64,000 nucleotides of DNA, from IMG/VR virus record IMGVR_UViG_3300048574_000462, positions 32,662 through 96,661 of that record. One strand, given 5' to 3'. The notes beneath the pieces were generated by a model, which made no database searches, was not told the DNA's origin, and was given only the letters and a program-made list of their open reading frames with translations. This document shows, piece after piece, positions 9,595 to 38,437 of this stretch (the first letter of the stretch is position 1; each line of letters opens with the position of its first letter). The stretch is from a virus. A program made the position numbers and the translations under genes.

Positions 9595-12399
9595 TCAGAA
9601 AATACCATCTGTTTCTAAAATATGGTCTAGCTCGTCGTTATTCTGCGCTTTCAGCACCTTGTCACGAACAGCCCCATGCGACAGATCAAGACGCTTGAAA
9701 CGCGTTTTTCCTGCGGCATCCTTTCCTGTGCGAATCAACTGCACGCGTCCAATGCAAGGCTCGTTTTCGGCATACTTAGCAAAGCCCTTCGCCTTGCCGA
9801 GATTATCCTTGAATTCCGGGTTGTGTGGTTCGAGGATGTCCACGACGTAGTTCAGTTCTGGATCGCCTCGAATAATCAGGAAATCGGGATATGTGGCCTT
9901 CACTTCGCCGTTGATCTCATACGGAATGCACAGCGACCACGATACGCGAGGCGGATTCCGCAGCCAGCACACGAAGTCAGGCCGCTTTTCCTCTTCGGCG
10001 ATCAGGTCATCTTCCCAACCGTTCAGTTTGATAATGGCAACTCCATTTTCGTCTGCGAACAGATGATTATCGTATTCTTTACCGTCTTTTTCATTCTTCA
10101 CGCTGATTGTCTCCGGCAGGGTGAAGCTATGCTTACTGATCACATCACCGTCCGCGATGATGTCGCTGTACTGCTTCCGGCACTTTTCGGATTTACCAAC
10201 GATATACTTGCGATACTTATCATTGAGACCATGGAATTTCTTCTCCGCGTAGCGGTTCATTGTGGCGATGCAGTCATCGTCTGCAGCGAAAAGGATGCAG
10301 TCGATTTTATAGGCGGAGGGATCGTCCTCGTTGAAATATTGCTGCCCATAGCAATTCGGGAAGCCATAACCGCTCATCCGGGCATCTGCAGCGCGAAGCT
10401 GACGATCCAGATCGCTCTCGGAGGCAGCCAAGAAGCCCTGCGCCATACCGTTGTCCAGAGATTCGCCGAACACGTCAAAAACGCGAACAGATAGCTTGAA
10501 GGACAGCACCTGACTGGCTAATTCTTTATACTTTCCCGTATAACGCAGCTCCTCTGCGTAATGGCGGATCATATCCACAACATCGGCCTTAACCTCATCA
10601 GTCGCAGCCGGGAAGATGGCTTCGCGCGTCAGCAGACTGGCAAGGTTCAGTAGGGACTTCATATAGTTATTGATCTTTACTGAGCGCACCATATATGTCA
10701 GCAGGGATTGATCGTTGATGAACTTCGTAATCGCTTCCCGGTCGATGCCTGCACCCGCCATGCGCGTCTGAACACCGGCAGGAGATGTTTCTGTGCGCGC
10801 GGAGGTGGGCTTGACGGGAACTGTCAGAGTCGGCTCGGTCTGCGGATGCACAGGATTAGGCACATACGGTTCCTCTGTATGGTGAACCGGCGCATCTCCT
10901 GACAGCCTGTTTTGTCCTAGCTGTGTGGCGGGCTGAATAGGCGTCACAGCACAAGTTGTCAAGTTGGAGAAACTAATCTGACCAGGAACCTGTTGCGCTT
11001 CCCTGTGGTGCTGCGTATGCACTGTCCACGACACATACACCTGCTGTTCCAGCGATTCCCCATCGATTACAGTCGGAATATCGCCACCTTCAGTGCTTTG
11101 CAGCTCATCAATGACGGACTTTACCGTATTCTGGTTGAAATACGGTAGGTACAACCGCACATCGTTCAGCGAATCATCAACGAGGATATGGCATTGCAGC
11201 GGAGTGCGCACCATGCGCCCAAGAAGCTGCGCAATATAGGTGGCATCCTCTGCATGACGGAAGGACATCATCGTTTCGGCACGAGGGCAATCCCAGCCCG
11301 TGGAGAGGTTCTCCTTGAACAGCACCACACGGATGCGCTTGTCCTCGGAAATCTCAGAAGGCTCGATGCGCTCCACCTGCAAACCGTTGATGGTCAGCGC
11401 AGGCGTAGAGCCAAAGGTGTGCACCACTTCATGTTCGCGGAAGCGTGTGCCGAGGCGCTCCTCGACCTTTGCAATGACATCATCGAGTTTCGTGTCGGAC
11501 ACAGCTTTGCCGCTGCCTGCAAGCACCTGAATCAGGAAGATAGGGTTCACCTGCGCATAGTGTTGTTCATAGGAATACTGATACCAATGCTCGCACTTCT
11601 TGCGCCATTCGTCCGTGGCCGCCTGCAAGAGCGCCATTTCGTTGTTCCGCTGCGGATCGTCCGGGTAGGTGATGACGATGCGATCCTTCAGCAAGCCGGA
11701 AGTGCGCACATCATTTGCCGAGACGATGCACTTCTGTAGGGTGGAGGTGGTGTCGCCGACCAGCTTGTTGAAGCGCTCCGCCGTAGCACTGATGCCAATA
11801 ACCACGGGCATGGGTGGCAGCTTCACTTCCGGGCTTCCCTTTAGAAAGCGCTGCATGATGGAGGTGGCCTTCCCGGCCTCGCGTCCTTGTGCGCCACGAT
11901 GCGCTTCATCGATGAGGAAATAGAGCCGGTCGCTCTTTTCCCGTACGGTGTTTGCTAGCGTTTCCCAGATAGTGTACTGCCGGGTGTCGGAGTGCTTTCC
12001 CAGATTCCCAGCCTTGCCGAGCTTCTGCGTGTTGAGGAAGTAAATATGCCCGTCATCCAGCATCTCCATGTCGAAGGACTCGTCCTCAATGGTGACACAC
12101 TGCCCAAAGCGAATCTTATCCGCCTTCAGGTCGAATTTCTGCTTTGACTGTGCATTAAGCTCAGGAGAATCTGACAACCAGACGAAAATTGCCTCTGGCT
12201 GCTCGGTAAACTGCTCGGTTCCGAAGTATATGTCCTCTACGAGCGCAGCCATGATAATGGTTTTGCCGGAGCCGGTCGGCGCCTGCAGAGAAACCACCTG
12301 CGGAATGTGAGTGCGATGATAGCTGCCCAGTGCTTCTGCAAGTTTTATGCGCAGGTCGGTAACTGCCTTTTTCTGAAATGGAAATAATTCAACCCTCAT
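9595..12399 (-). CDS. res: Type III restriction endonuclease Res subunit (SF2 helicase plus nuclease)
   Basis: APTGSGKT, DEAH, SAT, GWDCPRA, QLLGRMVR; C-terminal YPDF...LEPH; directly follows the MTase gene. Confidence 0.85.
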   Translation of the reverse strand: MRVELFPFQKKAVTDLRIKLAEALGSYHRTHIPQVVSLQAPTGSGKTIIMAALVEDIYFGTEQFTEQPEAIFVWLSDSPELNAQSKQKFDLKADKIRFGQCVTIEDESFDMEMLDDGHIYFLNTQKLGKAGNLGKHSDTRQYTIWETLANTVREKSDRLYFLIDEAHRGAQGREAGKATSIMQRFLKGSPEVKLPPMPVVIGISATAERFNKLVGDTTSTLQKCIVSANDVRTSGLLKDRIVITYPDDPQRNNEMALLQAATDEWRKKCEHWYQYSYEQHYAQVNPIFLIQVLAGSGKAVSDTKLDDVIAKVEERLGTRFREHEVVHTFGSTPALTINGLQVERIEPSEISEDKRIRVVLFKENLSTGWDCPRAETMMSFRHAEDATYIAQLLGRMVRTPLQCHILVDDSLNDVRLYLPYFNQNTVKSVIDELQSTEGGDIPTVIDGESLEQQVYVSWTVHTQHHREAQQVPGQISFSNLTTCAVTPIQPATQLGQNRLSGDAPVHHTEEPYVPNPVHPQTEPTLTVPVKPTSARTETSPAGVQTRMAGAGIDREAITKFINDQSLLTYMVRSVKINNYMKSLLNLASLLTREAIFPAATDEVKADVVDMIRHYAEELRYTGKYKELASQVLSFKLSVRVFDVFGESLDNGMAQGFLAASESDLDRQLRAADARMSGYGFPNCYGQQYFNEDDPSAYKIDCILFAADDDCIATMNRYAEKKFHGLNDKYRKYIVGKSEKCRKQYSDIIADGDVISKHSFTLPETISVKNEKDGKEYDNHLFADENGVAIIKLNGWEDDLIAEEEKRPDFVCWLRNPPRVSWSLCIPYEINGEVKATYPDFLIIRGDPELNYVVDILEPHNPEFKDNLGKAKGFAKYAENEPCIGRVQLIRTGKDAAGKTRFKRLDLSHGAVRDKVLKAQNNDELDHILETDGIF

Positions 12400-12401
12400 T
12401 G

Positions 12402-14489
12402 TCAGTTCCTCCCTGTATTGATTCTAAAATTATCAAAGTAATCGCGATAAAGCTGGAAGGTGTGCGGCGCATTCAGGTTTTTCGCCATGGCGCAGTATCC
12501 GGCTTCATAATCGGTGACAATGTACACCGTTTGGATTTCGGGGAGAGCATTGACCTGTTCCGCAAAATCGCTGAAGGCGGATTCCACCGTCAGTACGGCA
12601 AAGCGGTTTTCAGGCAACACCAGCATGGTGGGCGTTTCTCTATCTTCCAGCGTGGGGCATGCCCCGTGCGCACCGGCTTTCATCCACAGCGTCGGCAGCA
12701 TCTCCTTGAACTGACGACCCAGTGCAATACTGGTCTTGTTCAAGAAGCTCAGCTTGAAGAAGGCAGCGTTCGCCTTGAAGCCGTCCGCCATGGGAATCTC
12801 GCTGCCGATGTATTCGCCCTTGAGCGGCTGACCGTTCACATCATGGCCTACGATGGAACAGACTGTGCGAGGCCATGTGACGTAACGAGCAATGCCGAGT
12901 CTTTCCCATTCGGGATCGCCGGGGTGATAGCCCTGTGCCGTCAGCGACTTGGCTTCATTGTCGGACACCTCGTTGTTTGTCACCATGATGCATCGACGAT
13001 GCCCGCCGTCCTCGGCATTGAGAAGGTTGACGGCATGAAGGGTTGTGCCAGAACCGGCAAAAAAGTCGATGATTAATGCACACGGTTTTTCTTTTACAAA
13101 AAAACGAATTGCATCTTCCACTGCATACAAAGACTTCGGAAAGGCAAACCGTCTACCCGGTATCAATGAGCCAATTATGTTGGTTCCATATGCGCCAGCT
13201 TCATGAGCCGTCATGTTCCACTGGGTTTTAGGCGCTGTTGTTTTTGAATCGTCTACATAAACAACTTCCAGAGAACCATTGGCATCTCGCCCAATTACTT
13301 TAATAGTTCCGTCTTCAATCTGTTTCAGTTGATTGTTCGTAAGGTAGGATATAGAAGCCCCCTTACCTTTCGTAGGTTTTCCAAATTTAACAGCTCCGAT
13401 TTCATAAAGCTTGCGAAAGGTTGACGGAACCATTCCCCAACTATACTCTTCACCATCTCGTACAGGAGGCCAAATTTCATAAGTGCCTTCTGGAGCAACC
13501 GGAATATTTTCTCCTTCGTAAACCGCATTTCCAACAGAATGAAAAGAGTCATCGCTGCAGTTAAAATAAACAGGATACCATGAACCAGGATTAACTGGCC
13601 GCAACCCTTTTCGCCCCGTTCGAGGAAAGCCACGCCATCTTACATTTGTGTCTTGAGACACATCTTGGGTTAGCATATCACTTCCTGTTCGGGACAAAGT
13701 ATAATTGCCTATCATTACGAAATATATAAACTCGTTTACTCGGCTAAATTCATTAGTCCGAGCTGTTCCCTTTGGGTTAATAATGCTTGATATCATTTGT
13801 ATTTTTGCATCTGGGAATAATTCCTCCAGCAAGCATCCAAGATGCAGATACTCTTTTTCATCAATGGTCACGATCAGCACAGAATCCTTCGGGTTCAGTA
13901 GCTTCTTGGCGATCTTAAGCCGTTTTTGCATCATTGACAGCCATTTGCTGTGGCGATAGGTGTCGTTGCCATCTACATAGTCATTGTTGTACTTCCAGTC
14001 TCTTGCACCGGTATTGTACGGCGGATCGATATAGATGCAGTCCACCTTTCCGGCATAGAGGTATTCTAGGAACTGTAGGGCATGGTAGTTGTCCGCTTCG
14101 ATCAGCACATGCCACAGGTCGCTGTCGGGCGCGTTGCACACGGTGTCGATGGGCTTGAGGTGCGGATAGATCGGCTCACCGAATTCAGCCACGGATACCA
14201 GATCCGCCACAGGAAACGATACAGACTCCCCGCCCGCTTTCGGTAAACAGATCGCCTGACCATCGGCTAGCCTTAGCACAACATAATTGTCGCTCATCTT
14301 GCCGGTTTTAAGCGCAACCAAGCTTCCCTTGTTCACGGGAACATCATACAACGGGGCGCATTCGGGGAGATGCTCTTCAAAAACCAGGCCGAATTTTTTC
14401 TGCTTGTTCATACGGTCTACTTCCCGCTGAATGCGCTCTCGCAGTTCAGGGTTATCAATTTGGTTGATCAGATCATTGATTGCAGCCAT
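12402..14489 (-). CDS. mod: Type III Mod DNA amino-methyltransferase
   Basis: KKFGLVFE, YIDPPYNTG and DFFAGSGTT (beta-class motif order). Confidence 0.9.
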   Translation of the reverse strand: MAAINDLINQIDNPELRERIQREVDRMNKQKKFGLVFEEHLPECAPLYDVPVNKGSLVALKTGKMSDNYVVLRLADGQAICLPKAGGESVSFPVADLVSVAEFGEPIYPHLKPIDTVCNAPDSDLWHVLIEADNYHALQFLEYLYAGKVDCIYIDPPYNTGARDWKYNNDYVDGNDTYRHSKWLSMMQKRLKIAKKLLNPKDSVLIVTIDEKEYLHLGCLLEELFPDAKIQMISSIINPKGTARTNEFSRVNEFIYFVMIGNYTLSRTGSDMLTQDVSQDTNVRWRGFPRTGRKGLRPVNPGSWYPVYFNCSDDSFHSVGNAVYEGENIPVAPEGTYEIWPPVRDGEEYSWGMVPSTFRKLYEIGAVKFGKPTKGKGASISYLTNNQLKQIEDGTIKVIGRDANGSLEVVYVDDSKTTAPKTQWNMTAHEAGAYGTNIIGSLIPGRRFAFPKSLYAVEDAIRFFVKEKPCALIIDFFAGSGTTLHAVNLLNAEDGGHRRCIMVTNNEVSDNEAKSLTAQGYHPGDPEWERLGIARYVTWPRTVCSIVGHDVNGQPLKGEYIGSEIPMADGFKANAAFFKLSFLNKTSIALGRQFKEMLPTLWMKAGAHGACPTLEDRETPTMLVLPENRFAVLTVESAFSDFAEQVNALPEIQTVYIVTDYEAGYCAMAKNLNAPHTFQLYRDYFDNFRINTGRN

Positions 14490-17060: not shown

Positions 17061-17340
17061 GCAGAGATGACGCTTTCTACGATATCTCAACGCAGAGATG
17101 ACCATCAGGCGGCGGGATACAAAGAAAGCGGACATTACCACGTACAGCTTGATCCTGCCGGGTCGCTCCCGGTCTGAAGTTCTCGATCAAGCTGGAAGAC
17201 CCGCACCACGCTTGGGAAGGCGCAGGTGCAGCCGATGAGGGATCCTCCTTCATTTTGCGGCTGACCTAGTTTAGGTGCGCTCAAAATGCCTTGGATGGCT
17301 CCCTCAGATGCAGCAAAGCGTTGAGGGAGCTTCATTTTTG
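17061..17340 (+). ncRNA. Structured leader RNA upstream of the sigma-like gene
   Basis: Stems CAGCTTGATC/GATCAAGCTG (17145/17185), CAGCCG/CGGCTG and GCTCCCTCA/TGAGGGAGC plus a T-run. Confidence 0.45.
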
Positions 17341-17392
17341 CCTCCTTCACGCTTTCAGAACAACACGACCTGAAAACGAAAAGGAGCCAAAC

Positions 17393-18085
17393 ATGAGCCA
17401 ATCCAGCAATCCTCGCAAGTCCTATCCCCATGTCCCGAAGCAGTCCTACGACCGTCAGCCGATGCACTACATCTGCATCGGTGCTGATGACATCTACACC
17501 ATGATCACCCGCGCGGAGTTTTTCTCCCTTATGCGCAGCGTGGACGAGCCCATCAAGCAAACCTACATCGACGCCGATGGCGGATGCTCCTTTTTCTTCC
17601 CACTTTCTGCACATATGGCGGAGTTCGCTGTCCGACTCAAACGTGAAAAAGATGCTGAAGATCAGCGCCGCGTTCGCACCCGCCAGTGCATATACAAGAA
17701 CACTGCGAAATGTGATGGCTGGCGCACCCGAGACGAATACGGCTGCCTGGGCTGTGAGACCTGCTCTCGTGATCACATTCATCGCACCGTATCGCTCAAT
17801 CAACCCGTTGGCGAGGATGGCACCGAAATGGGCGATTTGCTTGCCGATGATACGAGCATTGAGCGTGATATGGAAGAAACCGCCACTCGCGACCTCATCG
17901 CCGCTACACTGGCCTCTCTACCTGAGGATGACCGAACCTTTATCCTCCGCCGCTTTCAGGACGGCATGACGCTCCGGAAACTGGCCGACGAGTGTGACAT
18001 CTCCGACTTCAGGTACGCGGGTAAAAAGGCCAATCGCATCATCGAACGCTTGAAAGCTGAAGCCCGACGGCTTGCTCCACAATAA
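17393..18085 (+). CDS. Sigma-70 region 4-like phage transcription factor
   Basis: SLN..VGEDG, L..LPEDDR......F..GMTLR.LA HTH; Cys cluster; AAGGAG RBS. Confidence 0.75.
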   Translation: MSQSSNPRKSYPHVPKQSYDRQPMHYICIGADDIYTMITRAEFFSLMRSVDEPIKQTYIDADGGCSFFFPLSAHMAEFAVRLKREKDAEDQRRVRTRQCIYKNTAKCDGWRTRDEYGCLGCETCSRDHIHRTVSLNQPVGEDGTEMGDLLADDTSIERDMEETATRDLIAATLASLPEDDRTFILRRFQDGMTLRKLADECDISDFRYAGKKANRIIERLKAEARRLAPQ

Positions 18086-28297: not shown

Positions 28298-28518
28298 GTG
28301 AGGACGGATATCGGAATCTCGCGGATGCGATCATCATACAAGCCGTGCATGACTATCGGCGCTCGATTCAACAGCTCATCCGAAAGCCCTATAGCGCAAA
28401 GGCCCATCAAGACAAACAGGATGTCGAGGCTTTCTTCCTAGGCGACTGGTTTCAGGTGCTGAGTGACATAGACGGACAGGAACTCCTACAAAGATTGGAA
28501 GCGGGTGTAAGGAAATGA
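28294..28518 (+). CDS. Conserved hypothetical phage protein
   Basis: Y.NLA.AII.QAV.DYR...E.FF..DWF..L..IDG. Confidence 0.75.
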   Translation: MSEDGYRNLADAIIIQAVHDYRRSIQQLIRKPYSAKAHQDKQDVEAFFLGDWFQVLSDIDGQELLQRLEAGVRK

Positions 28519-28961
28519 CCACGAAAGAATACTTCAGCCAGACGCTGACGCTGAACAAGCGCATCAACAGCAAGCTAGACCATCTGGCTGTTATTCGGGG
28601 ACTTGTGTCCAAGGCAACTTCTACGATAAGCGATATGCCACCCTGTGAATCCCGGGACGTTCACCAGATGGAAGAGGCCATCTGCAGAATGGTTGATCTG
28701 CAGAAAGAAGTTGACGCCGACATTAACCGGCTTGTCAACCTTAAGCTGGAGCAGATGGGCATCATCAGCGAGATTGAGAAACCACTGCACCAGTTGATTC
28801 TGGAACAGCGCTACCTATGCTGCCACTCCTGGGCCCGCATCAGCGAAGAGCTTGAGTACGACCAGCGATACCTACTCCGCCTGAACAACGAGGCGCTGGC
28901 GGCGGCAGAAGAGCTGATGAAAAAAAGAAATTTCGGAAATGCTCCAAATGGCACTAAATAA
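28515..28961 (+). CDS. Late transcriptional activator (DUF1492/RinA-like)
   Basis: M..KEY.SQ...ILE.RYL...W..I...L.Y HTH, at the end of the replication module. Confidence 0.75.
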   Translation: MTTKEYFSQTLTLNKRINSKLDHLAVIRGLVSKATSTISDMPPCESRDVHQMEEAICRMVDLQKEVDADINRLVNLKLEQMGIISEIEKPLHQLILEQRYLCCHSWARISEELEYDQRYLLRLNNEALAAAEELMKKRNFGNAPNGTK

Positions 28962-29111
28962 CACTTACGCCACCTTGAATCGCGGAGTATATTATACTTG
29001 TCAGAACCATCGGAGCGGGAGAAATCCCGCTCCTTTCGTATCTATGATTTGCTTGACTTCCATCGCTTTTCGAGCGTATATGTCACTACCCAAAGCGAAG
29101 GAGGCATTTTC

Positions 29112-29975
29112 ATGAGAGTTGAAACTGGATTTACCACGCAGCGCAAGCTGCTCGCCCAGGCCATCGGCGAATGGCTGCACTTGGAACCGCACTACGACGG
29201 TGTCCCGCGCTGCACCTACAGCATCGGCCCCGTCAGGGTGGACAAGGACGCGGCAATCGTCACTGAAGATTTGGAAGCCTGGACCACGCTTAAGCCCTTC
29301 TTCCAGAACCACGGCTGGGCGGCGGAGGAACCAGCGCCCGAGCAACCCGCGCCTGATGCCGATTCAGAAGCTGCCGACGAATCCGCCGACATCGACGCCA
29401 TGGAGATCAGCGAACCCGCGCCTGGCCTGACGGTGGGGAGTCTTTTGAACTTGATCCACATGCTGTACAGCAAGCAGTACCTGTTCAACCGCATGACGGA
29501 ATCCGGAAGCCTTTTCATTTCCAAGAACCTGATCGACAGCCTGAAGGAGCACATGCCGGAAGACATGGCCGCCTTTCAACAGCGGCTGGCGGATTTCAAA
29601 GTCCGCGGCGAGCTGGACGGCTTCAGTTATGCAGACGGCAACGTCACGCTGCGCTACCCTTTCCACGCGGAACAGCCGATGCGCTGGACGACCTACGGCC
29701 TACTGACCGATAAGATCATCAAGACCGCGCTGGCGGCAACTCGTATCACCGCACAGGTACAGGAACCTGAGAACGAGAAGTACTTCGCGCGGTCATGGCT
29801 CCTGCGACTGGGCATGGGCGGAGCTGATTTCAAAGAAGAACGCCGCATCCTGCTGGGCGGGTTGAAAGGCCACGCAGCGTTTCCGAACGATGCCGCCGCG
29901 ACGAAGCACAAAGAGAAGTACGCCGTCCTGCGCCGGGAAGCGCATGCGGCTGACGGGAAGGAGGATGTCGAATGA
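29112..29975 (+). CDS. Conserved phage protein of the type often labelled virulence protein
   Basis: RK.L..AI......Y.G.P...Y.IG N-terminus and ENEKY..R.WLLRLG..G..FK..R..LL..L.G..AF C-terminus; own promoter near 29053. Confidence 0.75.
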   Translation: MRVETGFTTQRKLLAQAIGEWLHLEPHYDGVPRCTYSIGPVRVDKDAAIVTEDLEAWTTLKPFFQNHGWAAEEPAPEQPAPDADSEAADESADIDAMEISEPAPGLTVGSLLNLIHMLYSKQYLFNRMTESGSLFISKNLIDSLKEHMPEDMAAFQQRLADFKVRGELDGFSYADGNVTLRYPFHAEQPMRWTTYGLLTDKIIKTALAATRITAQVQEPENEKYFARSWLLRLGMGGADFKEERRILLGGLKGHAAFPNDAAATKHKEKYAVLRREAHAADGKEDVE

Positions 29976-30490
29976 AGGGCCTGAATGAACAGCTGCTCGA
30001 TTTCAAAGCCCGGCAACTAGCCGGGGAGCGCCTGTCCTGTCCCCGCTGCGGAAGCGGCGTGATGAACACCCATGTGACGCGCAATGCGCTCAGCCGCCAC
30101 GCGGACGTCTACGTCTGCGACGATTGCGGCACCGCAGAGGCGATGCTGGATCTGATGCAAAACCCGCTGCCACTACAGCAATGGGCGCTCTTTCATGACG
30201 GACGGCCGGTCTCCAATTTCAAAGCGCTGCCCGGCGCGCTGGTGTGGGAGCGCCTTCAAAAACAGCAGGTTCCCTACCTGATGGATCTGTATGAGCGGTG
30301 GCTCGGGGTACAAGGCAAAGAAGATTTCGAAGCGTATCGCGCCGAGGCGTACCAGCACTGCCCAGGTCTGACGCACCTGTGGCTCCAGCCCTTCCAGGCT
30401 GTCTACCGGGTCTGTGAAGGCCAACTTCTGGTGCGGTTCAGAAAGACGGATGCCGGTGTCGAGACCGCCCGCGACGTGATCCCACTCTGA
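29972..30490 (+). CDS. Hypothetical zinc-ribbon protein
   Basis: CPRCG...NALSR....VCD.CG..EA. Confidence 0.7.
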   Translation: MKGLNEQLLDFKARQLAGERLSCPRCGSGVMNTHVTRNALSRHADVYVCDDCGTAEAMLDLMQNPLPLQQWALFHDGRPVSNFKALPGALVWERLQKQQVPYLMDLYERWLGVQGKEDFEAYRAEAYQHCPGLTHLWLQPFQAVYRVCEGQLLVRFRKTDAGVETARDVIPL

Positions 30491-30616
30491 CGATTCGCAA
30501 CGTGGCCGCACAGGCGCCCTTGACGCGGGTCGGGTGCGCGCAACCGGGTTCGTCCCTCAAGCACCACAATCAGCGCCCACGTGGCGCGACAGGCGCAAGA
30601 TTTCAAAGCCCCATAA

Positions 30617-30651
30617 ACGACAAAACCGCTCTCAAGTGAGCGGTTTTTCGT
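30617..30651. terminator. Bidirectional terminator between convergent operons
   Basis: AAAACCGCTC-tcaagt-GAGCGGTTTTT. Confidence 0.75.
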
Positions 30652-30677
30652 CATGGTCGGAGCCAACGCGGCTGGGT

Positions 30678-31124
30678 TCATCTTGGTGTACGCGCCAGGC
30701 TGCGCAGCAGCGCGGGCTCCAGGACCTTCTCGATTTCGGAGCGGAATCCCAGCGCTTGGTACGCCCGCCGGATGCCCTCGTAGTAATCCCGGGTCGGCGG
30801 CGCGATGCGCTTCTGGTTCATCAGGTAGATCATCCCCTTGATTTCAGAGCCGTCTGTCATGTGCACCGTGCGCTCCGCCTTGATGTAGTAGCTAGGGTAG
30901 CCTTCATAGCGGTCGAGCCGCTGTTCGTCCGCTTCGTTGATCTCCCAGACCGCCACTGGCACACGGGTGGGCGCGGCCTTGATTTGAGAGCGCTCAACCG
31001 TTGCGTGAAGGTAGAACTCCAGCCGCGCGCCGGGCAGGTACCCCATGCCGATAAGCCGGGCGCCCGGGCAGCGGTACGCCATCTGTTCCTGGACCATGTT
31101 GGAGCCGTAAGCGATGTACCTCAT
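30678..31124 (-). CDS. Gamma-glutamylcyclotransferase (AIG2-like)
   Basis: YIAYGSNM...QM..RCP and LDRYEGYP motifs. Confidence 0.9.
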   Translation of the reverse strand: MRYIAYGSNMVQEQMAYRCPGARLIGMGYLPGARLEFYLHATVERSQIKAAPTRVPVAVWEINEADEQRLDRYEGYPSYYIKAERTVHMTDGSEIKGMIYLMNQKRIAPPTRDYYEGIRRAYQALGFRSEIEKVLEPALLRSLARTPR

Positions 31125-31161
31125 TCGTGTTCCTCCTCAACTCGATTTGAAACCGGTATGC

Positions 31162-31386
31162 TCAGCGGCTCCGTACGATGGTCAGCTGGTACTCGCGGCC
31201 GTTCGGCAGGCTGATGACCAGCCCCTTGTCGTTCGTCATCACGCCGCCCTCAGCAAAGGTCTGCACCCGAAGGTTCTCCCAGCACACGTCCTCCGCTGTG
31301 CGGTAGTCGCCGTCCTGGGCGATCATCTCCCGCAGGCCGTCCTGCAACACCTCTTCGAAGTCCTGTTCGTTCTCGAGCTCGTACAT
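31162..31386 (-). CDS. Small acidic phage protein
   Basis: TF.E.GVMT.DKGLVI.L.NG.EYQLTIV; AAAGGAGG RBS. Confidence 0.75.
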   Translation of the reverse strand: MYELENEQDFEEVLQDGLREMIAQDGDYRTAEDVCWENLRVQTFAEGGVMTNDKGLVISLPNGREYQLTIVRSR

Positions 31387-31426
31387 CTGTGTGGTCCTCC
31401 TTTATATTTGGGAGCTCTACCAGCTT

Positions 31427-31484
31427 CCCGCGACCGGCGATGTGCCGGTTTCGGGCCGTAGCCAGCGGCCCATCGTCAGGCGGG
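31427..31484 (-). ncRNA. Type I hammerhead ribozyme (HH-B)
   Basis: CCCGC-CUGACGA-U-GGGCCG(cuggcua)CGGCCC-GAA-ACCGGC(acauc)GCCGGU-C^-GCGGG; predicted cut after 31432. Confidence 0.85.
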
Positions 31485-31490
31485 CTTGAT

Positions 31491-31886
31491 TCAAAAGCTG
31501 GTTGGGGCGAAAAGCGCGATGTAGTCGTGTGCAGCCTTGGATAGGGTTTTCAAGTCCGCGTCGGTCGGTTGGCCGTACCAGTCCGGCTTACCCTGGTACA
31601 CCCAGATGTGCGGGGTCTTCATGTCACCGCCAGGCGTACGAATGGAGGCGAAGTGGTCTTGATTCCGAAGCAGGAGTGTGTCGACCTTGCCCTCGGTGCG
31701 GTTCAGAATGGTGACCTGCAGGGCCTCGTATTTATCCGCTGTGCCGGTGGTGACGAACTCGATGCGCGCCCGGATTTGCTCGTCCAGCGGCAGGAATGCT
31801 GCGCGGCCGACGTAGACGGGGCTGGTTGATTTGAAAGCCGTGGTCCTGCCAGTGAGCGTCCGGAGCTGCTTTTCAAAGAAGTTCAT
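31491..31886 (-). CDS. Hypothetical phage protein (MNFFEKQL...)
   Basis: GAGGAGG RBS before ATG 31886; ILNR.EGKVD and PHIW motifs; the longer ORF-track start overlaps the amidoligase. Confidence 0.75.
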   Translation of the reverse strand: MNFFEKQLRTLTGRTTAFKSTSPVYVGRAAFLPLDEQIRARIEFVTTGTADKYEALQVTILNRTEGKVDTLLLRNQDHFASIRTPGGDMKTPHIWVYQGKPDWYGQPTDADLKTLSKAAHDYIALFAPTSF

Positions 31887-31925
31887 GGTGTTCCTCCTCA
31901 AAATGATTTCATAGCTTGCGGCCTT

Positions 31926-31978
31926 CCCGCGACGCGTTTTGCGTTTCGGCCCGGAGCCGCCGGGCCTCATCAGGCGGG
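31926..31978 (-). ncRNA. Type I hammerhead ribozyme (HH-A)
   Basis: CCCGC-CUGAUGA-GGCCCGG(cggcu)CCGGGCC-GAA-ACGC(aaaac)GCGU-C^-GCGGG; canonical core; predicted cut after 31931. Confidence 0.92.
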
Positions 31979-32002
31979 TGTGCTTGATTTGAAACCGGTG
32001 TG

Positions 32003-32869
32003 TCAGCTCGCCTGTCTCCAGGCAGCGTTGCCGGGCAGGTGCTTGAGCAGGTGTTCGCGGGCGGTCGCGAACTCGTCGCCGATGAACCCCAGCCGGAGCA
32101 GCCAGCACCGGAAGGTGTACTTGGGGTTGTCCGTCTCCGGGCGGCGTGGCGAGGCCGAACTTGATTCCAAAGCCTGGTGGGAAATCGCCAGGCTCAGTTG
32201 GATGAAAGCCTTGATTTCGCCCGCGTGGAGTGTGCTGTTGAAGGCCCGGAACTCGACGGTGCCCTTTTGGAACACCGAGTGGAGGTTCAAAAGGTGGTAC
32301 CGGCTGTGGTCGTAGTGCTCGTGGGCATGGCGCTCCCAGTTCCGATCGTCGTACCACACCCGGGCGATCTCGGGGAGGGTTTTCGGCTTGAGCCGGTTCA
32401 GCCTCGCGAGGAAGCCCGCGTCCACCGGCTGGCACCAGCGTGTGCGGCGTTCCGGCGAGATCTGCAGCGCCTGGGTCAGCAGGTCCTCCTTGGCGTTGAC
32501 GATGTTCACCAGATTTCGGAGCGTTTTCGGGGTGTGGCTTCCCAGCCCGATGTGCACGTGGATCCCGCAGCTCTCGTGTGCCTTGGCGCCGGCCCGGCGG
32601 AGCTTGCGCACCAGTTCCTGGACCGTCTCGATGTCCGCCCACCGGCAGATTGGGCTGACCAGCTCGGTGCGCTCCTCATACGGGCCGGCGATGCTGGCGT
32701 CCGAGACCAGCTTCCAAGGCCGGCCTTCCGGGTCGTACACCGCCCAGGTGTCGTAGCTCCCGCCCACGTGGGTGGGTCGGATGTCAAAGTGTGCGGCGAT
32801 GACCTCCGCGGCCTTCGCCCGGGTGATGCCGTTCATCTCGATTTCGATACCAAAGGTCTGGTCCTTCAT
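32003..32869 (-). CDS. Putative amidoligase (Amidoligase_2 family)
   Basis: FGIEIE, WKLVSDASI, ELVSP, SCGIHVH, RY..LNL and TVEFR.FN motifs. Confidence 0.92.
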   Translation of the reverse strand: MKDQTFGIEIEMNGITRAKAAEVIAAHFDIRPTHVGGSYDTWAVYDPEGRPWKLVSDASIAGPYEERTELVSPICRWADIETVQELVRKLRRAGAKAHESCGIHVHIGLGSHTPKTLRNLVNIVNAKEDLLTQALQISPERRTRWCQPVDAGFLARLNRLKPKTLPEIARVWYDDRNWERHAHEHYDHSRYHLLNLHSVFQKGTVEFRAFNSTLHAGEIKAFIQLSLAISHQALESSSASPRRPETDNPKYTFRCWLLRLGFIGDEFATAREHLLKHLPGNAAWRQAS

Positions 32870-32897
32870 GGCGGTTTCCTCCTGTGTGTGCTCGGGC

Positions 32898-33269
32898 TCA
32901 GCGCGTGACCCGGCGGGCGGCGGCCGCGGCTTTGCGGGCTTTTCCGGCGGCGACGTAGGCCCGGCCGTGTGCCTGCATGGCGGCTTCCAGAAGGTCGGCG
33001 TCCTCGTCGTCCGACCCCAGGTCGGCCGGGATCTCGTCGGCCAGGAGCTCGGCGGTGTCGGCCGCAACCGCGGCGTGGAGCGCAGCCTGCTCGGCGGCGG
33101 CCCGGTACAGCCGGGCGGCGTTGGTGGCGGCGACCAGGGCGGCTTCGGCCTCGGCGGCTTCGCGGGCGGCCCGGTCGGCCCGTTCGGCGGCGGCCTCGGC
33201 CTGGGCGGCGGCCCGGAGCGCGTCCCGGGTGGCGGTGTGGAAGGCGGCCCTTTCAGCGCAGGTGGTCAT
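32898..33269 (-). CDS. Ala-rich coiled-coil hypothetical protein, first gene of the leftward operon
   Basis: AAAGGGG RBS then ATG 33269; about 80% GC; ends just before the amidoligase RBS. Confidence 0.55.
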   Translation of the reverse strand: MTTCAERAAFHTATRDALRAAAQAEAAAERADRAAREAAEAEAALVAATNAARLYRAAAEQAALHAAVAADTAELLADEIPADLGSDDEDADLLEAAMQAHGRAYVAAGKARKAAAAARRVTR

Positions 33270-33500
33270 GGGGTACCCCTTTCGGCCCGGCGGCTTGACC
33301 CGCCCGCGGCGGCGGCCCGGTTTGCGGCCGCGACACATTCATCGCTCGGCCCGGCCGGAAACGCAAGATAACAAACGCCGTCGTTTTTGCGTCGTTTGCG
33401 ATACGTCGCCCGACTCACGCGCTATAGAGGAAGCGCGCGCCACCGCCCGCCCAAACCCCGCCCGGCCGCCCGGAAAAACCCCGCCGGCTTTCGCACGCCG

Positions 33501-33848
33501 CTTCAGAGAAGTCCGACGGGCGCGGTGGACTTTCGGGGTTTGCTTTGGAGAAGTCCCACCGGCGCGGTGGACTTTCGGAGTTTGCTTTGGAGAAGTCCGA
33601 CCAGCCCGGTGGACTTTGGCGCTCCGCTTCGGAGAAGTCCGACGGGCACGGTCGGCTTTCGGACTGTGCTTGGGAGAAGTCCGACCAGCCTGATGGACTT
33701 TCGCGCTCCGCTTCGGAGAAGTCCGACCAGCCTGGTGGACTTTTGCGCTCCGCTTCGGGGAAGTCCCACCCGAACGGTGGACTTTTACGCTCCGCTTCGG
33801 AGAAGTCCGACCAGCTTGATGGACTTTCGCGCTCCGCTTCGGTGAAGT
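33501..33848. repeat. Tandem array of eight 42-bp palindromic units plus a partial ninth
   Basis: Units start at 33501, 33543, 33585, 33627, 33669, 33711, 33753, 33795 and 33837; consensus CTTCGGAG-AAGTCC-N12-GGACTT-N10. Confidence 0.95.
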
Positions 33849-33935
33849 GTCCCGGGGGAGGGGGGATCGGATCTCTACAAACCTCTCGCTGGAGACCGCG
33901 GCCCTCTCTCATGTGAATTTTCGCGAAATTGGAGC
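33849..33935 (+). other. Putative cos/packaging initiation region
   Basis: CCCGGGGGAGGGGGGATC..ATCTCTAC...GAGACCGCGGCCC...TTTTCGCGAAATT resembles the sequence upstream of packaging genes in HNH/P27-TerS Firmicutes phages. Confidence 0.65.
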
Positions 33936-34066
33936 CGATTTTTTTAGGCCGGAGCCGACGTTTTTGCTGCTATTGTTGATGAAAGAACGTTAGCTCAGCG
34001 CGAAAAGCTCCCCAAATCGGCGTTTGAAGTGCTCAAATCGACTACTGACGATACGGAGGAACCAGG

Positions 34067-35386
34067 ATGGCGATAGAAAGAACCGGCAAGCATCCCTCCG
34101 GACTGCGCGTGGATATGAACATCCAGCGCGTCCCGGTAGACAAACTCAAGCCCGCAAAATACAATCCCCGAAAAGATCTCAAGCCCGGCGACCCGGCCTA
34201 TGAGAAGATCCGGCGGTCGCTGCACGATTTCGGCTACGTGGATCCCATCATCTGGAATGAGGTCACGGGGAATATCGTAGGGGGACACCAGCGTCAAAAA
34301 ATCCTTGTAGCGGAAGGTGCCACCGAACTTGACTGCGTGGTGGTCCATATTGAAAACCCCGATGATGAAAAGGCGCTCAATATCGCGCTGAATAAGGCGG
34401 TCGGCGAATGGGAACCGGAAGCACTGGTTGACCTGCTGGAAGAACTGCAGGCGGCAGGATACGACCTTGATGCCACCGGGTTTGACGCGGCCGAGGTAGA
34501 CGACCTGTTCTCCAGCGTTCACGACAAGAACGTAAAAGAGGACGACTTCGACTTGACCGCTGCGCTTGAGCAGGCCGCCTTCGTGGAGAAAGGTGATGTA
34601 TGGCAGCTCGGTAAGCACCGGCTGCTCTGCGGCGACGCCACCAGCGAGGAGGATGCGCTGCGCCTCATGAACGGGGCCAAGGCCAATCTTGTGGCGACCG
34701 ATCCGCCTTATGGGGTCGCGTTTGAGAGTTCAGGTGGCCTGAAAATCATGAACGACGCGTTGGGCGGAGAAGAGTTTTACGCATTCCTGCTATCTGCCTT
34801 CCGGACCATGGTGAAATGCCTGGACAAAAACGGCTCCGCGTATGTGTTCCACGCGGATACCGAAGGCCTGGCTTTCCGAAAGGCGTTCATAGAGGCGGGC
34901 TTTCATTTGAGCGGCGTGTGTATCTGGGCGAAGAACGCGCCGGTGCTGGGGCGCTCCCCGTTCCAATGGAAGCATGAGCCCGTGCTATATGGCTGGCTGA
35001 AGGGTGGGACTCACCGCTGGTACGCGGGGCGCGGCGAATCCACCATCTGGAACTTTGATAAGCCCAGCAGAAACACCGATCACCCCACCTCAAAGCCTGT
35101 TGAGCTGATGGCCTATCCCATCGGAATCTCCTGCCCTGTGAATGGCATCGTGATCGACTTCTTCGGCGGCAGCGGGTCAACGCTCATGGCTTGTCAGGAG
35201 ACGGACCGGATCTGCTATATGATGGAGCTGGACCCCAAGTACGCCAGCGTCATTCTTCGCAGGTACGCCCAGAGCTATGGGGAGGCAGGCATCGTCTGTG
35301 AGAGAAACGGCCGACAGCTTCCCTTCGGCGAACTTGTAAAACAAGTCGAGCGCCCGGAAAAAGGCGGCATGGAGGAAAGCACGTAA
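34067..35386 (+). CDS. ParB/Srx N-terminal domain fused to a DNA amino-methyltransferase
   Basis: YNPRK...VGGHQR; TDPPY; HPT.KPV; DFFGGSGST. Confidence 0.9.
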   Translation: MAIERTGKHPSGLRVDMNIQRVPVDKLKPAKYNPRKDLKPGDPAYEKIRRSLHDFGYVDPIIWNEVTGNIVGGHQRQKILVAEGATELDCVVVHIENPDDEKALNIALNKAVGEWEPEALVDLLEELQAAGYDLDATGFDAAEVDDLFSSVHDKNVKEDDFDLTAALEQAAFVEKGDVWQLGKHRLLCGDATSEEDALRLMNGAKANLVATDPPYGVAFESSGGLKIMNDALGGEEFYAFLLSAFRTMVKCLDKNGSAYVFHADTEGLAFRKAFIEAGFHLSGVCIWAKNAPVLGRSPFQWKHEPVLYGWLKGGTHRWYAGRGESTIWNFDKPSRNTDHPTSKPVELMAYPIGISCPVNGIVIDFFGGSGSTLMACQETDRICYMMELDPKYASVILRRYAQSYGEAGIVCERNGRQLPFGELVKQVERPEKGGMEEST

Positions 35387-35433
35387 TCTTAGCGGGCTGT
35401 CAGCCTCCGCATCGGGACAGGAGGTGAAGACAA

Positions 35434-35988
35434 GTGGCGAAGCGAGGCCGAAAGCCGAAACCTACGGCGCTGAAGAAGCTGGAAGGGAATCCCGGCAAGC
35501 GGCAGCTGAACGATTATGAACCACTGCCGCCCACCTCGATGCTCAGGTGTCCGAACTACCTGCTGCCGGAAGCCAAAAAAGAATGGCGCAGGCTTGCGCC
35601 CGCGCTGATTGATATGGGGGTGCTGACGGTTGCGGACGCCGTGCCATTCGCCGCGTACTGCACCGCCTTCGCCCGGTGGCGAGAAGCCGAAGACTTTATC
35701 ACCAAGCACGGCGCCATCTACAAGGACCCGAAGGGCTTTGCCCGCCCCAACCCGTATGTGGCGATCGCGGCGCATCAGCTGCGGGAGATCAAGTCGTTGG
35801 CGGCCGAGTTCGGGCTGACTCCGGCCAACCGCACGGCGATCATCGCCAACGCACTGAGCATCGCCAGGGGCGTCAAGGACCCAATGGAACAGATCCTGAC
35901 GTCAAGCCTGGATGACACCATTGTGGTAGAAGGCGGCAGCAACTTTCTTGAGGATGATCCCGACGATACAAGAGAAGGAGGCGAGTGA
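35434..35988 (+). CDS. terS: Terminase small subunit, P27 family
   Basis: RGRKPKPTALKKLEGNPGKR, AK.EW.RL, AAYC and EFGLTP..R motifs. Confidence 0.92.
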   Translation: MAKRGRKPKPTALKKLEGNPGKRQLNDYEPLPPTSMLRCPNYLLPEAKKEWRRLAPALIDMGVLTVADAVPFAAYCTAFARWREAEDFITKHGAIYKDPKGFARPNPYVAIAAHQLREIKSLAAEFGLTPANRTAIIANALSIARGVKDPMEQILTSSLDDTIVVEGGSNFLEDDPDDTREGGE

Positions 35989-36470
35989 TGGTGCAAAACG
36001 CACAGAACGGCTGGAGTCCGGCGATTGAAGCCATGCACGCCCAGGGCATAAGAGTATTGCTCGTATTCGGAACAGAAACAGAGGAAAACCGCGCGAAACT
36101 GGCGGACGCATGCAGGAATATCGAGTGCATTGAAAAGATCGAGCTTCGTCTCAAAGAACTGCTCGAGGCTTGCGAACTTGCGGCGTTTACCGGCAAAGCA
36201 TGGCAGGACGCTCAGAAGCAGATGAATTGTCTTTTCAAGCGCACCCGCAAGTTCCAGCGGGATACCTATGAATTTGGTTGGTCTCCGCTTGCCCGGGTAC
36301 TTCTCGTCCAGAAGTATCGCCGCCTGAAGCTCCGGGATCAGAAGGAAGTGTCTGAAAACAACCCGATGGAGCGCTTTCTGCGCGAACACTGTACGCTGGG
36401 CATGGATCCGCAGGACCCGACGGCAGATGCGCAAGATCCGCTGGAGACGCTGCTAAATGACGAGTGGTAA
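35985..36470 (+). CDS. Diverged TerS-like paralogue
   Basis: LADAC~FAAYC, EFGWSPLAR~EFGLTPANR, NPMERFL~DPMEQIL; lies between terS and terL. Confidence 0.55.
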   Translation: MMVQNAQNGWSPAIEAMHAQGIRVLLVFGTETEENRAKLADACRNIECIEKIELRLKELLEACELAAFTGKAWQDAQKQMNCLFKRTRKFQRDTYEFGWSPLARVLLVQKYRRLKLRDQKEVSENNPMERFLREHCTLGMDPQDPTADAQDPLETLLNDEW

Positions 36471-38082
36471 GGCGCGTACGGATGCGCAGGGGAAGAAGCA
36501 AGTGTACGTGCCCACCCGCTTCATGCTGCCCACTTCCAGTTACGACAAGCGCCGCGCGGACCGCGCTGTCGGGTTCATCCAAGGCCTGAAGCACACCAAG
36601 GGCGTCTGGTCGGGTAAGCCGTTCCTTCTCTTTCCATGGCAAGAACAGATCATCCGCGACCTTTACGGCACGGTCAAGGAGAACGGCTACCGGCAGTTCA
36701 ACACGGCATTTGTTGAGATCTGTAAGAAGGCCGGGAAGAGCGAGCTGGCCGCGGCCATTGCGCTGTACATGCTCTGCGCTGACAACGAGGATGGCGCGGA
36801 GATCTACGGCTGCGCCAATGATCGCCAGCAGGCGAGCATCGTATTTGAAGTGGCGAAAGATATGGTGTTGCAGTCTCCGATCCTTCTGGAGCGCATCAAG
36901 ATTGTGGAATCACAAAAGCGCCTGGTATACATGCCGACGCGCAGCATCTACCAGGCGCTTTCGAGTGATGTGGCTTCCAAGTATGGCTACAATGTCCATG
37001 CCTGCATCTTTGATGAATTGCTCGGCCAGCCCAACCGAAAACTGTTTGACGTCATGACCAAGGGCGCGGGTGCCGCGCGCAAGCAGCCGCTGAACTTCGT
37101 CATCACGACAGCCGGTTCCGACCGGACCAGCATCTGCTATGAAGTGCACGCCAAGGCGATGGATCTGTTGGAGGGGCGCAAGAGCGACCCCACCTTCTAC
37201 CCGGTGGTGTACAGCGCTCCGGACACCGCGGACTGGACGGATCCAAAGGTTTGGAGTAAGGCCAATCCCTCGCTCGGGCGCACGGTGGACATGGACTACT
37301 ACATGGCCCGATGCGAGAGCGCCAAGGAGAACCCCGCCGAGGAGATCCAATTTCGACAGTTCCACCTTTGCCAGTGGACGAACACATCCGTCCGATGGAT
37401 GCCCATGGACAAGTGGGATGCGTGCAAAAGCGAGTTCGCGGCATCTCAACTAGAAGGCAGAGTGTGTTATGCCGGGCTCGACCTTGCCAGCACCAGTGAC
37501 TTGACGGCGCTGGTGCTCGTTTTCCCGCCTGAGAATGAGAGCGAACCTTATGTTGTGCTGCCCTTCTTCTGGCTGCCAAAGGAAACCTTGCAGCTTCGTG
37601 TGCGGCGCGATCATGTGATGTACGATGTGTGGGAGAAGCAGGGGTTCATCCAAACCACCGAGGGCAACGTTGTCCATTACGGGTTCATTGAGCAGTTCAT
37701 CATGAAGTTGGGCGAACGGTACAACATCCGAGAGATCGCCTACGACCGGTGGAACGCCAGCATGATGGTGCAGGCGCTGGAAGATGATGGGTTCACCATG
37801 GTCCCCTTCGGCCAGGGCTTTAAGGACATGAGCAGCCCTACGAAAGACCTGATGCGTCTAGTGCTGGAAAAGAGCCTGACCCACGATGGACATCCCTTGC
37901 TTCGCTGGAACATAGATAACATCTTTGTCCGTACCGACCCCGCCGGGAACCTGAAAATCGACAAGGAAAAGTCGACCGAAAAAGTGGACGGCGCGGTCGC
38001 GCTGGTGATGGCGCTGGATCGGGCGATGAAGAACCAGAACGGCGGCTCCGTTTATGATGAACGCGGACTGCTCTTCATCTGA
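36457..38082 (+). CDS. terL: Terminase large subunit
   Basis: KKAGKSELAA, IFDEL, GLDL.ST.DLTA and KVDGAVA motifs. Confidence 0.95.
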   Translation: MTSGKARTDAQGKKQVYVPTRFMLPTSSYDKRRADRAVGFIQGLKHTKGVWSGKPFLLFPWQEQIIRDLYGTVKENGYRQFNTAFVEICKKAGKSELAAAIALYMLCADNEDGAEIYGCANDRQQASIVFEVAKDMVLQSPILLERIKIVESQKRLVYMPTRSIYQALSSDVASKYGYNVHACIFDELLGQPNRKLFDVMTKGAGAARKQPLNFVITTAGSDRTSICYEVHAKAMDLLEGRKSDPTFYPVVYSAPDTADWTDPKVWSKANPSLGRTVDMDYYMARCESAKENPAEEIQFRQFHLCQWTNTSVRWMPMDKWDACKSEFAASQLEGRVCYAGLDLASTSDLTALVLVFPPENESEPYVVLPFFWLPKETLQLRVRRDHVMYDVWEKQGFIQTTEGNVVHYGFIEQFIMKLGERYNIREIAYDRWNASMMVQALEDDGFTMVPFGQGFKDMSSPTKDLMRLVLEKSLTHDGHPLLRWNIDNIFVRTDPAGNLKIDKEKSTEKVDGAVALVMALDRAMKNQNGGSVYDERGLLFI

Positions 38083-38110
38083 TCTCTTCATCTATATAGG
38101 GGGGATTTGC

Positions 38111-38437
38111 ATGCCGAGAAAACCGAAGCGTCCTTGCCGGTATCCCGGCTGCCCCAATCTAGGTGAAGAGCCCTATTGTGAGCAGCATCGTGGATTATAT
38201 GTGCGAGAGAGCGCGGCGGCGCGTGGATACAACAGCAAATGGCAGGCGGCGCGGAAGCGCTATCTGCGTGCGCATCCTCTTTGTGTGAAATGCCAATGTC
38301 AAGGAAAGCTGACCCCAGCCACCGTAATCGACCATATCATCCCGCACCGTGGCGATGATAAATTATTCTGGGATCAAAAAAACTGGCAACCCCTCTGCAA
38401 AGGTTGCCATGACCGGAAGACCGGCGGCGGACTGTAG
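38111..38437 (+). CDS. HNH endonuclease (terminase cofactor type)
   Basis: PLCVKC...DHIIPH.GD..LFWD..NWQPLCK.CH.RKT. Confidence 0.92.
   Translation: MPRKPKRPCRYPGCPNLGEEPYCEQHRGLYVRESAAARGYNSKWQAARKRYLRAHPLCVKCQCQGKLTPATVIDHIIPHRGDDKLFWDQKNWQPLCKGCHDRKTGGGL

Follow-up and report, generated by a model that had tools for sequence, protein, structure and literature searches.

Iyer et al. in 2009 and the Pfam description of PF12224 are said to place Amidoligase_2 enzymes in a neighborhood of AIG2/GGCT (γ-glutamyl cyclotransferase) proteins in phages of the Firmicutes. The pairing of an amidoligase with GGCT is on record in prophages of Clostridia (PMC11318856, citing Iyer 2009). Hammerhead ribozymes that flank prophage genes, together with the processing of polycistronic RNA, were published in 2011 by Perreault et al. 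(PMC3088659); prophage hammerheads have also been reviewed, and their role in bacteria is still open (PMC6765202). Here, we describe a locus of the provirus record IMGVR_UViG_3300048574_000462 in which a leftward operon, running from an Amidoligase_2 gene to a GGCT gene, contains two hammerheads and is accompanied by a strand-locked 11-mer, a tandem array of palindromes, and a conserved noncoding block. The window, that is, the whole stretch that was analyzed and to which all coordinates refer, comprises the final 64 kb of this 96.7-kb IMG/VR record. It was compared with 160 related loci that were fetched with the amidoligase and consist of 80 genome loci and an independent set of 80 IMG/VR viral contigs. 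With a probability of about 0.6, we read the locus as a ribozyme-cut accessory operon with a fixed frame and exchangeable cassettes, equipped with three factor-binding cis-elements and placed at the junction of the two arms of a temperate siphophage.

The original prediction, a note made from the letters of the window, placed two hammerheads in the operon, and both were borne out as complete type I ribozymes on the minus strand (hammerhead A, 31926–31978; hammerhead B, 31427–31484). A strict type I descriptor gave exactly two matches in the window versus none in 60 random sequences, and our own covariance model (R1, built from 57 hammerhead copies) scored hammerheads A and B at 64.5 and 72.5 bits, respectively. 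Both copies combine CUGAUGA or CUGACGA with GAAA and GUC, and have stems II and III closed by loops and an open stem I of 5 bp; the core columns (CUGANGA, GAAA, and the cleavage triplet, whose last base is H and which is GUC here) are invariant in the 57 aligned copies. The minimum-energy fold of hammerhead A is a three-way junction. In hammerhead B, as in most relatives, one additional base separates A9 from stem II; it is a U in this copy. With their 3′ tails, the two ribozymes extend over 31917–31978 and 31418–31484; the cuts are predicted between C31931 and G31930 and between C31432 and G31431, which would leave leaders of 44 and 45 nt.

In the related loci, the descriptor found approximately 75 matches in 822 kb (the 80 genome loci), every one on the strand of the amidoligase. 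Model R1 detected 105 copies in the genome loci and 74 in the IMG/VR viral set, which together with the two in the window amounts to 181 copies, none of them antisense. Every copy is intergenic, and the operon is split in this way into blocks of one to three small genes. Ten of the 17 stem pairs vary on both sides, with a covariation score of 0.345 compared with 0.112 after shuffling and at most 0.084 when partners were slid; the covarying helices are stems II and III. Intact cores in 181 copies, covarying stems, a uniform sense orientation, and strictly intergenic positions all argue against taking the hammerheads for selfish or relic repeats with no role in expression. Such an origin would fit the presence of highly similar repeated copies that mark recombination joints, and we regard it as very unlikely.

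The five leftward genes of the original prediction (an Ala-rich open reading frame [ORF], an amidoligase, a hypothetical protein, an acidic protein, and GGCT, all on the minus strand) were recovered by frame analysis of the GC content at third codon positions (GC3), by ORF calls, and by Pfam and PHROG searches. The head of the operon encodes an Amidoligase_2 enzyme of 288 residues (32003–32869; PF12224, 6.2e-67) and its tail an AIG2/GGCT γ-glutamyl cyclotransferase (30678–31124; Pfam GGACT, PF06094, 4e-12; phrog_2520, 1.6e-33). The two families lie on one strand in one operon, and the pair recurs in relatives. Between them are two cassette genes: one for a 131-residue protein (31491–31886), which has a single homolog, in locus L002, and is missing from locus L001; and one for a 74-residue acidic protein (31162–31386), which belongs to a cluster of 17 loci. 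Family searches matched no protein family to either product, and the AlphaFold model of the acidic protein, with a predicted local distance difference test score (pLDDT) of 60, was unusable for structure search. The Ala-rich ORF (32898–33338, with a possible start at 33272) has a GC3 of 0.88; its coding status is uncertain, and comparable ORFs were seen among relatives in L001, L002, L004, and L030 only.

A terminator-type hairpin at 30622–30647, called on the minus strand by the terminator scan, marks the end of the operon and is common to the convergent unit of the genes p325 and p172 described later. Runs of A and T flank its stem, and because a run of A precedes the stem, the hairpin could terminate plus-strand transcription too. 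The proposed promoter TTGCGT-18-ATGAAT is present as a sequence, but only four of six and three of six positions of its hexamers match the consensus, and the promoter scan made no call. A protein with sigma-70 region 4, encoded at the head of the replication module (17291–18085), may direct phage-specific promoters; if it does, the missing sigma-70 consensus promoter of the accessory operon would be explained.

In relatives, small genes occupy 0.3 to 5 kb from the amidoligase to the end of the operon, and the tail position is taken by GGCT in 19 loci and by a protein of approximately 196 residues with an N-terminal Cys in 22 loci. The latter family (L009:3309–3905, L016:8311–8925, and 20 other loci) has Met-Cys at its N terminus and two conserved motifs, HNG and SDT. 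Pfam gave no match for it; judged by these sequence features, it looks like an N-terminal-nucleophile amidohydrolase and often stands in the place of GGCT. In two relatives from Lachnospiraceae, an azaaromatic (yjdF) riboswitch lies approximately 4 kb downstream of the amidoligase–GGCT pair (L071:10826–10950 and L077:11255–11379).

Two observations capture the turnover of cassettes directly. In locus L001, whose amidoligase is 98% identical, the 131-residue gene is absent and a single hybrid hammerhead is present. A DNA variant in the metagenome of run X1 joins 31403 to 31923 and is without the 131-residue cassette and one hammerhead, the joint being within the ribozyme copies. Hence, cassettes are gained and lost by recombination at ribozyme copies.

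In this reading, the backwards-facing operon has a fixed frame, with Amidoligase_2 at the head, GGCT or, in many relatives, the 196-residue N-terminal-Cys protein at the tail, and exchangeable small genes between. The intergenic type I hammerheads would cut the polycistronic RNA, as predicted after C31931 and C31432, so that a downstream message would start with a 5′-OH approximately 45 nt before a start codon, whereas the hairpins of the ribozyme would form the end of the message upstream. Cutting would thereby uncouple the stability and translation of neighboring cassettes, and the near-identical ribozyme copies also serve as the recombination points at which cassettes come and go. The noncoding block of 110 nt, the helically phased array, and the strand-locked 11-mer most likely bind phage-encoded factors that control the domain.

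The polarity of GATTTSAAAS sites that the original prediction had noticed holds: there are seven matches between 29592 and 31995, all on the plus strand, versus 0.56 expected. Refined, the motif becomes an 11-mer that reads GCTYYSAAATC on the operon-sense strand and GATTTSRRAGC on the plus strand. Nine exact sites occupy a domain of the plus strand at 29268–32522, and the minus strand has none in the entire 64 kb. Densities of the exact 11-mer in relatives follow the same domain, with 0 sites per kb upstream (148 kb), 0.28 in the amidoligase gene, 2.98 in the operon, 3.19 in p172, 1.22 in p325, and 0.23 beyond. Using a 10-mer form (the 11-mer minus its first G), we counted, in 24 full-length loci, approximately 320 operon-sense sites from the 3′ end of the amidoligase gene to approximately 6.5 kb downstream, compared with approximately four on the other strand there; the 6 kb on the terminase side held approximately six.

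In the convergent p172 and p325 genes, the 11-mer lies on the coding strand and is read in the frame D-[LF]-[KER]-A. All 54 D[LF]KA tetrapeptides of p172 homologs use GAT and AAA, compared with 43% and 31% elsewhere in the same genes, which shows that selection acts on the nucleotides of the 11-mer and that the motif is kept in coding sequence by synonymous codon choice. A one-strand motif that is maintained in this way across convergent genes strongly indicates a cis-acting signal and is unexplained. As a candidate host Chi site, the 11-mer was rejected by genome-wide counts: host chromosomes of 2.7 to 3.4 Mb have 20 to 45 matches each, these cluster in the prophage copies, and the rest are close to chance expectation.

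The polarity of the 11-mer follows the DNA and not the genes, which fits either a DNA-level signal or complementary RNAs of the convergent units. Because a single DNA polarity runs across both units, GCUUYSAAAUC is found in the mRNAs of the cargo and its exact complement in those of p172 and p325, so that the two sets of RNAs could pair. An RNA-level role could take the form of cargo mRNA leaders, with GCUUYSAAAUC 5′ of the Shine–Dalgarno sequence, that either pair with the p172/p325 mRNAs or bind an RNA-binding zinc-ribbon protein and so set the translation of cassettes. The placement of the sites speaks for such a role: 100 of them are found in the 45 nt that precede a cargo start codon, most often with the motif start 24 to 31 nt ahead and just 5′ of the Shine–Dalgarno sequence, and 74 of 95 hammerheads are followed by an 11-mer 7 to 14 nt past their 3′ end. 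So do the complement embedded in frame in p172 and p325 through codon choice and weak family leads of p172 to zinc-ribbon RNA binders and Mu Com. These leads are below threshold, however; a further 164 sites lie within cargo ORFs, away from start codons and in all three frames, and a model of DNA-binding sites explains the same pattern. On balance, we consider control at the RNA level unlikely.

The many one-orientation copies of an asymmetric site, both intergenic and genic, could alternatively suggest a roadblock or operator, for which mycobacteriophage L5 offers a precedent (PMC9283540). A phage protein bound to the polar 11-mers would halt leftward transcription, silencing the operon and shielding p172, p325, and the ArpU gene from antisense read-through. 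Stoperators follow the direction of transcription and are spread genome-wide, whereas the orientation of the 11-mer follows the DNA irrespective of local transcription, its sites are limited to a domain of 3 to 7 kb, and no L5-type repressor was identified. From this analysis, a roadblock appears doubtful.

The plus-strand gene p172 (29972–30490) encodes a zinc-ribbon protein with an invariant CPRCG...CDxCG pattern and is found in every locus that has the 11-mer domain. It is, by this sequence association, the prime candidate for the reader of the 11-mer. Its AlphaFold model reached a pLDDT of 89. The neighboring p325 gene (28998–29975, plus strand, probable start 29112) has conserved synteny, and the C-terminal approximately 60 residues of its product (29112–29975) resemble the tail of the amidoligase (32003–32182), with 40% identity and a BLASTP E-value of 1e-8. 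This common tail suggests a module for partner binding or substrate binding. In the protein atlas, p172 and p325 matched hypothetical clusters only. Upstream of p325 lies the gene for an ArpU-like late regulator (28515–28961, plus strand; TIGR01637, 1.2e-6, which is under the curated cut-off).

On the other side of the operon, the predicted array of 42-bp palindromic repeats is present at 33488–33848 with 8.6 copies, 80% matches, and no indels (Tandem Repeats Finder score 400), each unit holding the palindrome AAGTCC-N12-GGACTT. Folded as RNA, the array gives z = −3.3, which is expected from the palindromes and therefore decides nothing. What the original prediction called a cos-like site is a conserved noncoding block of approximately 110 nt (33850–33960), composed of a G-run (GGGAGGGGGG), then GGAGACCGC, then the palindrome GAATTT-N5-AAATTC; it may be a cos site or a divergent control region. 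A search with nhmmer found the block in 34 related loci, always 0.2 to 1.3 kb upstream of the amidoligase gene, even where the gene for the ParB-methyltransferase that follows it here is 1 to 2.4 kb off.

An array of exactly phased 42-bp units, without indels and with one palindrome per unit, next to a conserved block near the packaging genes, is what one would expect if it bound terminase or an accessory protein in the manner of cosB. With a period equal to four helical turns, all the sites would face the same side of the helix, and the DNA would be wrapped for recognition of cos. The array lies, however, on the far side of the block from terS, with the ParB-methyltransferase gene between, and relatives have at the same position either related 40- to 42-bp arrays or unrelated GC-rich repeats of 18 to 75 bp (among them repeats of 18 to 21 bp), so that sequence-specific binding to the array is not conserved. 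We thus give a cosB-like function a low probability.

Of the elements whose co-occurrence the original prediction proposed to test (array, hammerheads, and extra TerS), tandem repeats and hammerheads travel together in relatives, along with the polar motif and the block, and their order relative to the packaging genes is retained; the extra TerS gene does not travel with them. Co-occurrence is all-or-none by clade, and synteny to the genes for ParB-methyltransferase, TerS, and TerL was seen in relatives with enough upstream sequence.

To the right of the block, on the plus strand, the predicted ParB-methyltransferase is confirmed as a ParB N-terminal domain fused to an N6/N4 DNA methyltransferase (34067–35386; Pfam; phrog_498, 1e-162). 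Of the two TerS-like genes that were expected to follow, the first is a terminase small subunit of the P27 family (35434–35988; PF05119, 4e-27; TIGR01558, 2e-20). The second, a 161-residue ORF (35985–36470) that overlaps both terS and terL, is not TerS-like (BLASTP against TerS, E = 11), matched no Pfam, PHROG, or NCBIfam family, and is missing from this position in relatives, in which terS directly adjoins terL. The large terminase subunit (36457–38082) has TerL_ATPase and TerL_nuclease domains and is followed by an HNH endonuclease (38054–38437; PF01844, 2.6e-8). The set of HNH, P27 TerS, and HK97-type TerL makes cos packaging plausible.

This gene set, and the presence of a conserved, G-rich noncoding block upstream of packaging genes, are the points from which the original prediction of a genome end draws its strength. 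According to that proposal, the block would be cos, and the array and operon would form the end that is packaged last and ejected first, transcribed inward at once as an early anti-defense or host-modification unit comparable to the leading region of a plasmid, with the array protecting or organizing the end. The plus-strand polarity of the 11-mer is as expected for a signal read from the right-hand end, and the cargo is small, variable, and of no known family, as is often the case in anti-defense loci. Where inserted genes separate the two sides, however, the block stays with the operon and not with the ParB-methyltransferase and TerS genes. No known anti-defense family occurs among the operon proteins or the cargo clusters, and no early gene family of plasmid leading regions (ardA, psiB, ssb, and the like) was found, either in the operon of the window or among 10 cargo clusters. 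The reverse orientation of the operon and its own terminator are typical of morons expressed from a prophage. Reads over the region showed no pile-ups of starts or ends, in a raw-read run that barely contains the phage. Contig ends were rejected as evidence of termini: the contig ends of metagenome-assembled genomes near the amidoligase fall at tandem repeats or hammerhead copies, and the ends of IMG/VR proviruses are pipeline cuts at gene starts (ATG). To our knowledge, stepwise expression ordered by DNA entry is known for T5, T7, and conjugation and not for lambda-like phages. All in all, we regard a first-ejected early unit as improbable.

A related proposal, and quite an unlikely one, is that the block, the phased array, and the field of 11-mers constitute a polar DNA signal linked to the genome end, which would be read by a packaging, ejection, or end-processing machine moving relative to cos, with the cassettes delivered first. 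If true, this would be a system of which none has been described for any phage.

The locus is the junction of the replication/late-regulator arm with the packaging arm of a temperate siphophage of the Candidatus Heliusvirales type in Clostridia (Christensenellales-like hosts). The replication side encodes a PD-(D/E)XK nuclease, an Enc34-type single-stranded DNA-binding protein, a family A DNA polymerase, a VapE-type helicase, and an SNF2 helicase; after the ArpU-like regulator come the ParB-methyltransferase, P27 TerS, TerL, HNH, portal, ClpP protease, and capsid genes, and the surroundings also include genes for a tape measure protein, a holin, and a large serine recombinase. GenBank entry PV036419, Christensenellales phage NatCom_6392, shares this gene order and is filed under Candidatus Heliusvirales. 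In its relevant part (L163, PV036419.1 9651–28154), this phage carries the same module, with two hammerheads detected by model R1 and 12 strand-locked 11-mers, none of which is annotated. Its coding sequence labeled “amidoligase” is called as 518 residues, probably with the upstream Ala-rich region fused in. The order has been reported as widespread in human guts, in a paper that mentions neither the amidoligase module nor ribozymes (PMC11283538). A megablast search with the region against the phage collection gave no match. Outside the prophage core, a Mutator/IS256-type transposase adjoins a restriction-like pair on the minus strand, composed of a ResIII/SNF2 helicase-nuclease and an N6/N4 methyltransferase (7501–8757 and 9595–14489).

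Several points weigh against reading the locus as a ribozyme-cut cassette operon under the control of factor-binding elements. Self-cutting of the hammerheads is predicted rather than observed. Rfam searches, with the gathering score and with E ≤ 10 as cut-offs, returned no hammerhead in the window or in 12 related loci, and no ribozyme family in the window and 43 related loci. The alignment has 99% of its stem cells paired, a figure that is partly by construction since the seed sequences were picked with a pairing descriptor. A GGC in loop II is complementary to a GCC in the tail in nearly all copies, yet partner shuffling gives an equal score; this pairing is conserved and no covariation was found in it. 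Contigs from metatranscriptome libraries cover 31405–33497, with the array not included; a start to the left of the array and prophage expression would both agree with this, but the contigs are no proof of either, nor of transcription, strand, or ends. In the 10 cargo clusters that were examined, there are almost no Pfam or PHROG families and no protein of known function. The pattern of 11-mers does not tell a DNA-level role from an RNA-level one. The association of p172 with the 11-mer is a co-occurrence inside a single phage lineage and hence not independent evidence, and the p172 model had no Foldseek match at E ≤ 0.001 against solved structures, the best VIA-align Z-score being 6.2, to generic α/β folds.

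The original prediction held the combination of elements to be undescribed. This no longer applies to the hammerhead layout (PMC3088659) or to the amidoligase–GGCT pair (PMC11318856); the array, the block, and the 11-mer do appear to be undescribed, and they are genuine, conserved, and unexplained. Finding the reader of the 11-mer would expose a new layer of control in temperate phages.

The packaging side resembles the cos regions of lambda and HK97 (cosQ-cosN-cosB), and those of cos phages that depend on HNH, in its set of P27 TerS, TerL, and HNH and in a conserved noncoding region with repeats upstream of the packaging genes. It differs in that the repeats lie here on the far side from terS. 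We know of no cos with a multi-kilobase field of polar 11-mers. Like Chi, the 11-mer is short, strand-polar, and over-represented, with an orientation compatible with a nuclease that enters from the right-hand end; unlike Chi, it is not over-represented in host chromosomes. The stoperators of cluster A mycobacteriophages (PMC9283540) are similar in being strictly oriented, asymmetric, intergenic sites of 11 to 13 nt that occur by the dozen in a temperate phage, whereas the present 11-mers keep one DNA orientation through genes that converge, occupy a single domain (the operon through p325), and are also embedded in coding sequence.

The operon corresponds to the known neighborhood of Amidoligase_2 and AIG2/GGCT in that both families are present in one operon of a Clostridia prophage. 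In the relatives from Lachnospiraceae, the two genes are adjacent and hammerheads, 11-mer, and p172 are lacking, whereas here 0.3 to 5 kb of ribozyme-delimited cargo lies between them. As with the prophage hammerheads of Perreault et al. (PMC3088659), there are several ribozymes per prophage operon, flanking single genes or short blocks of varying identity; RNA processing is the proposed function, and a pseudoknot-type contact between loop and tail is possible. In contrast to those ribozymes, the present subfamily is of type I, has an invariant 5-bp stem I (CCCGC/GCGGG) and usually an extra base after A9, and is detected by no Rfam model; it belongs to a single syntenic module (amidoligase frame, 11-mer, and array) next to the terminase genes, with the turnover of cassettes seen directly. 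With 181 hammerheads in one fixed genetic setting and visible cassette turnover, the role of bacterial hammerheads becomes directly testable. Since Perreault et al. had described hammerheads that flank variable prophage genes, the locus represents a new subfamily and a new setting of a known kind of arrangement.

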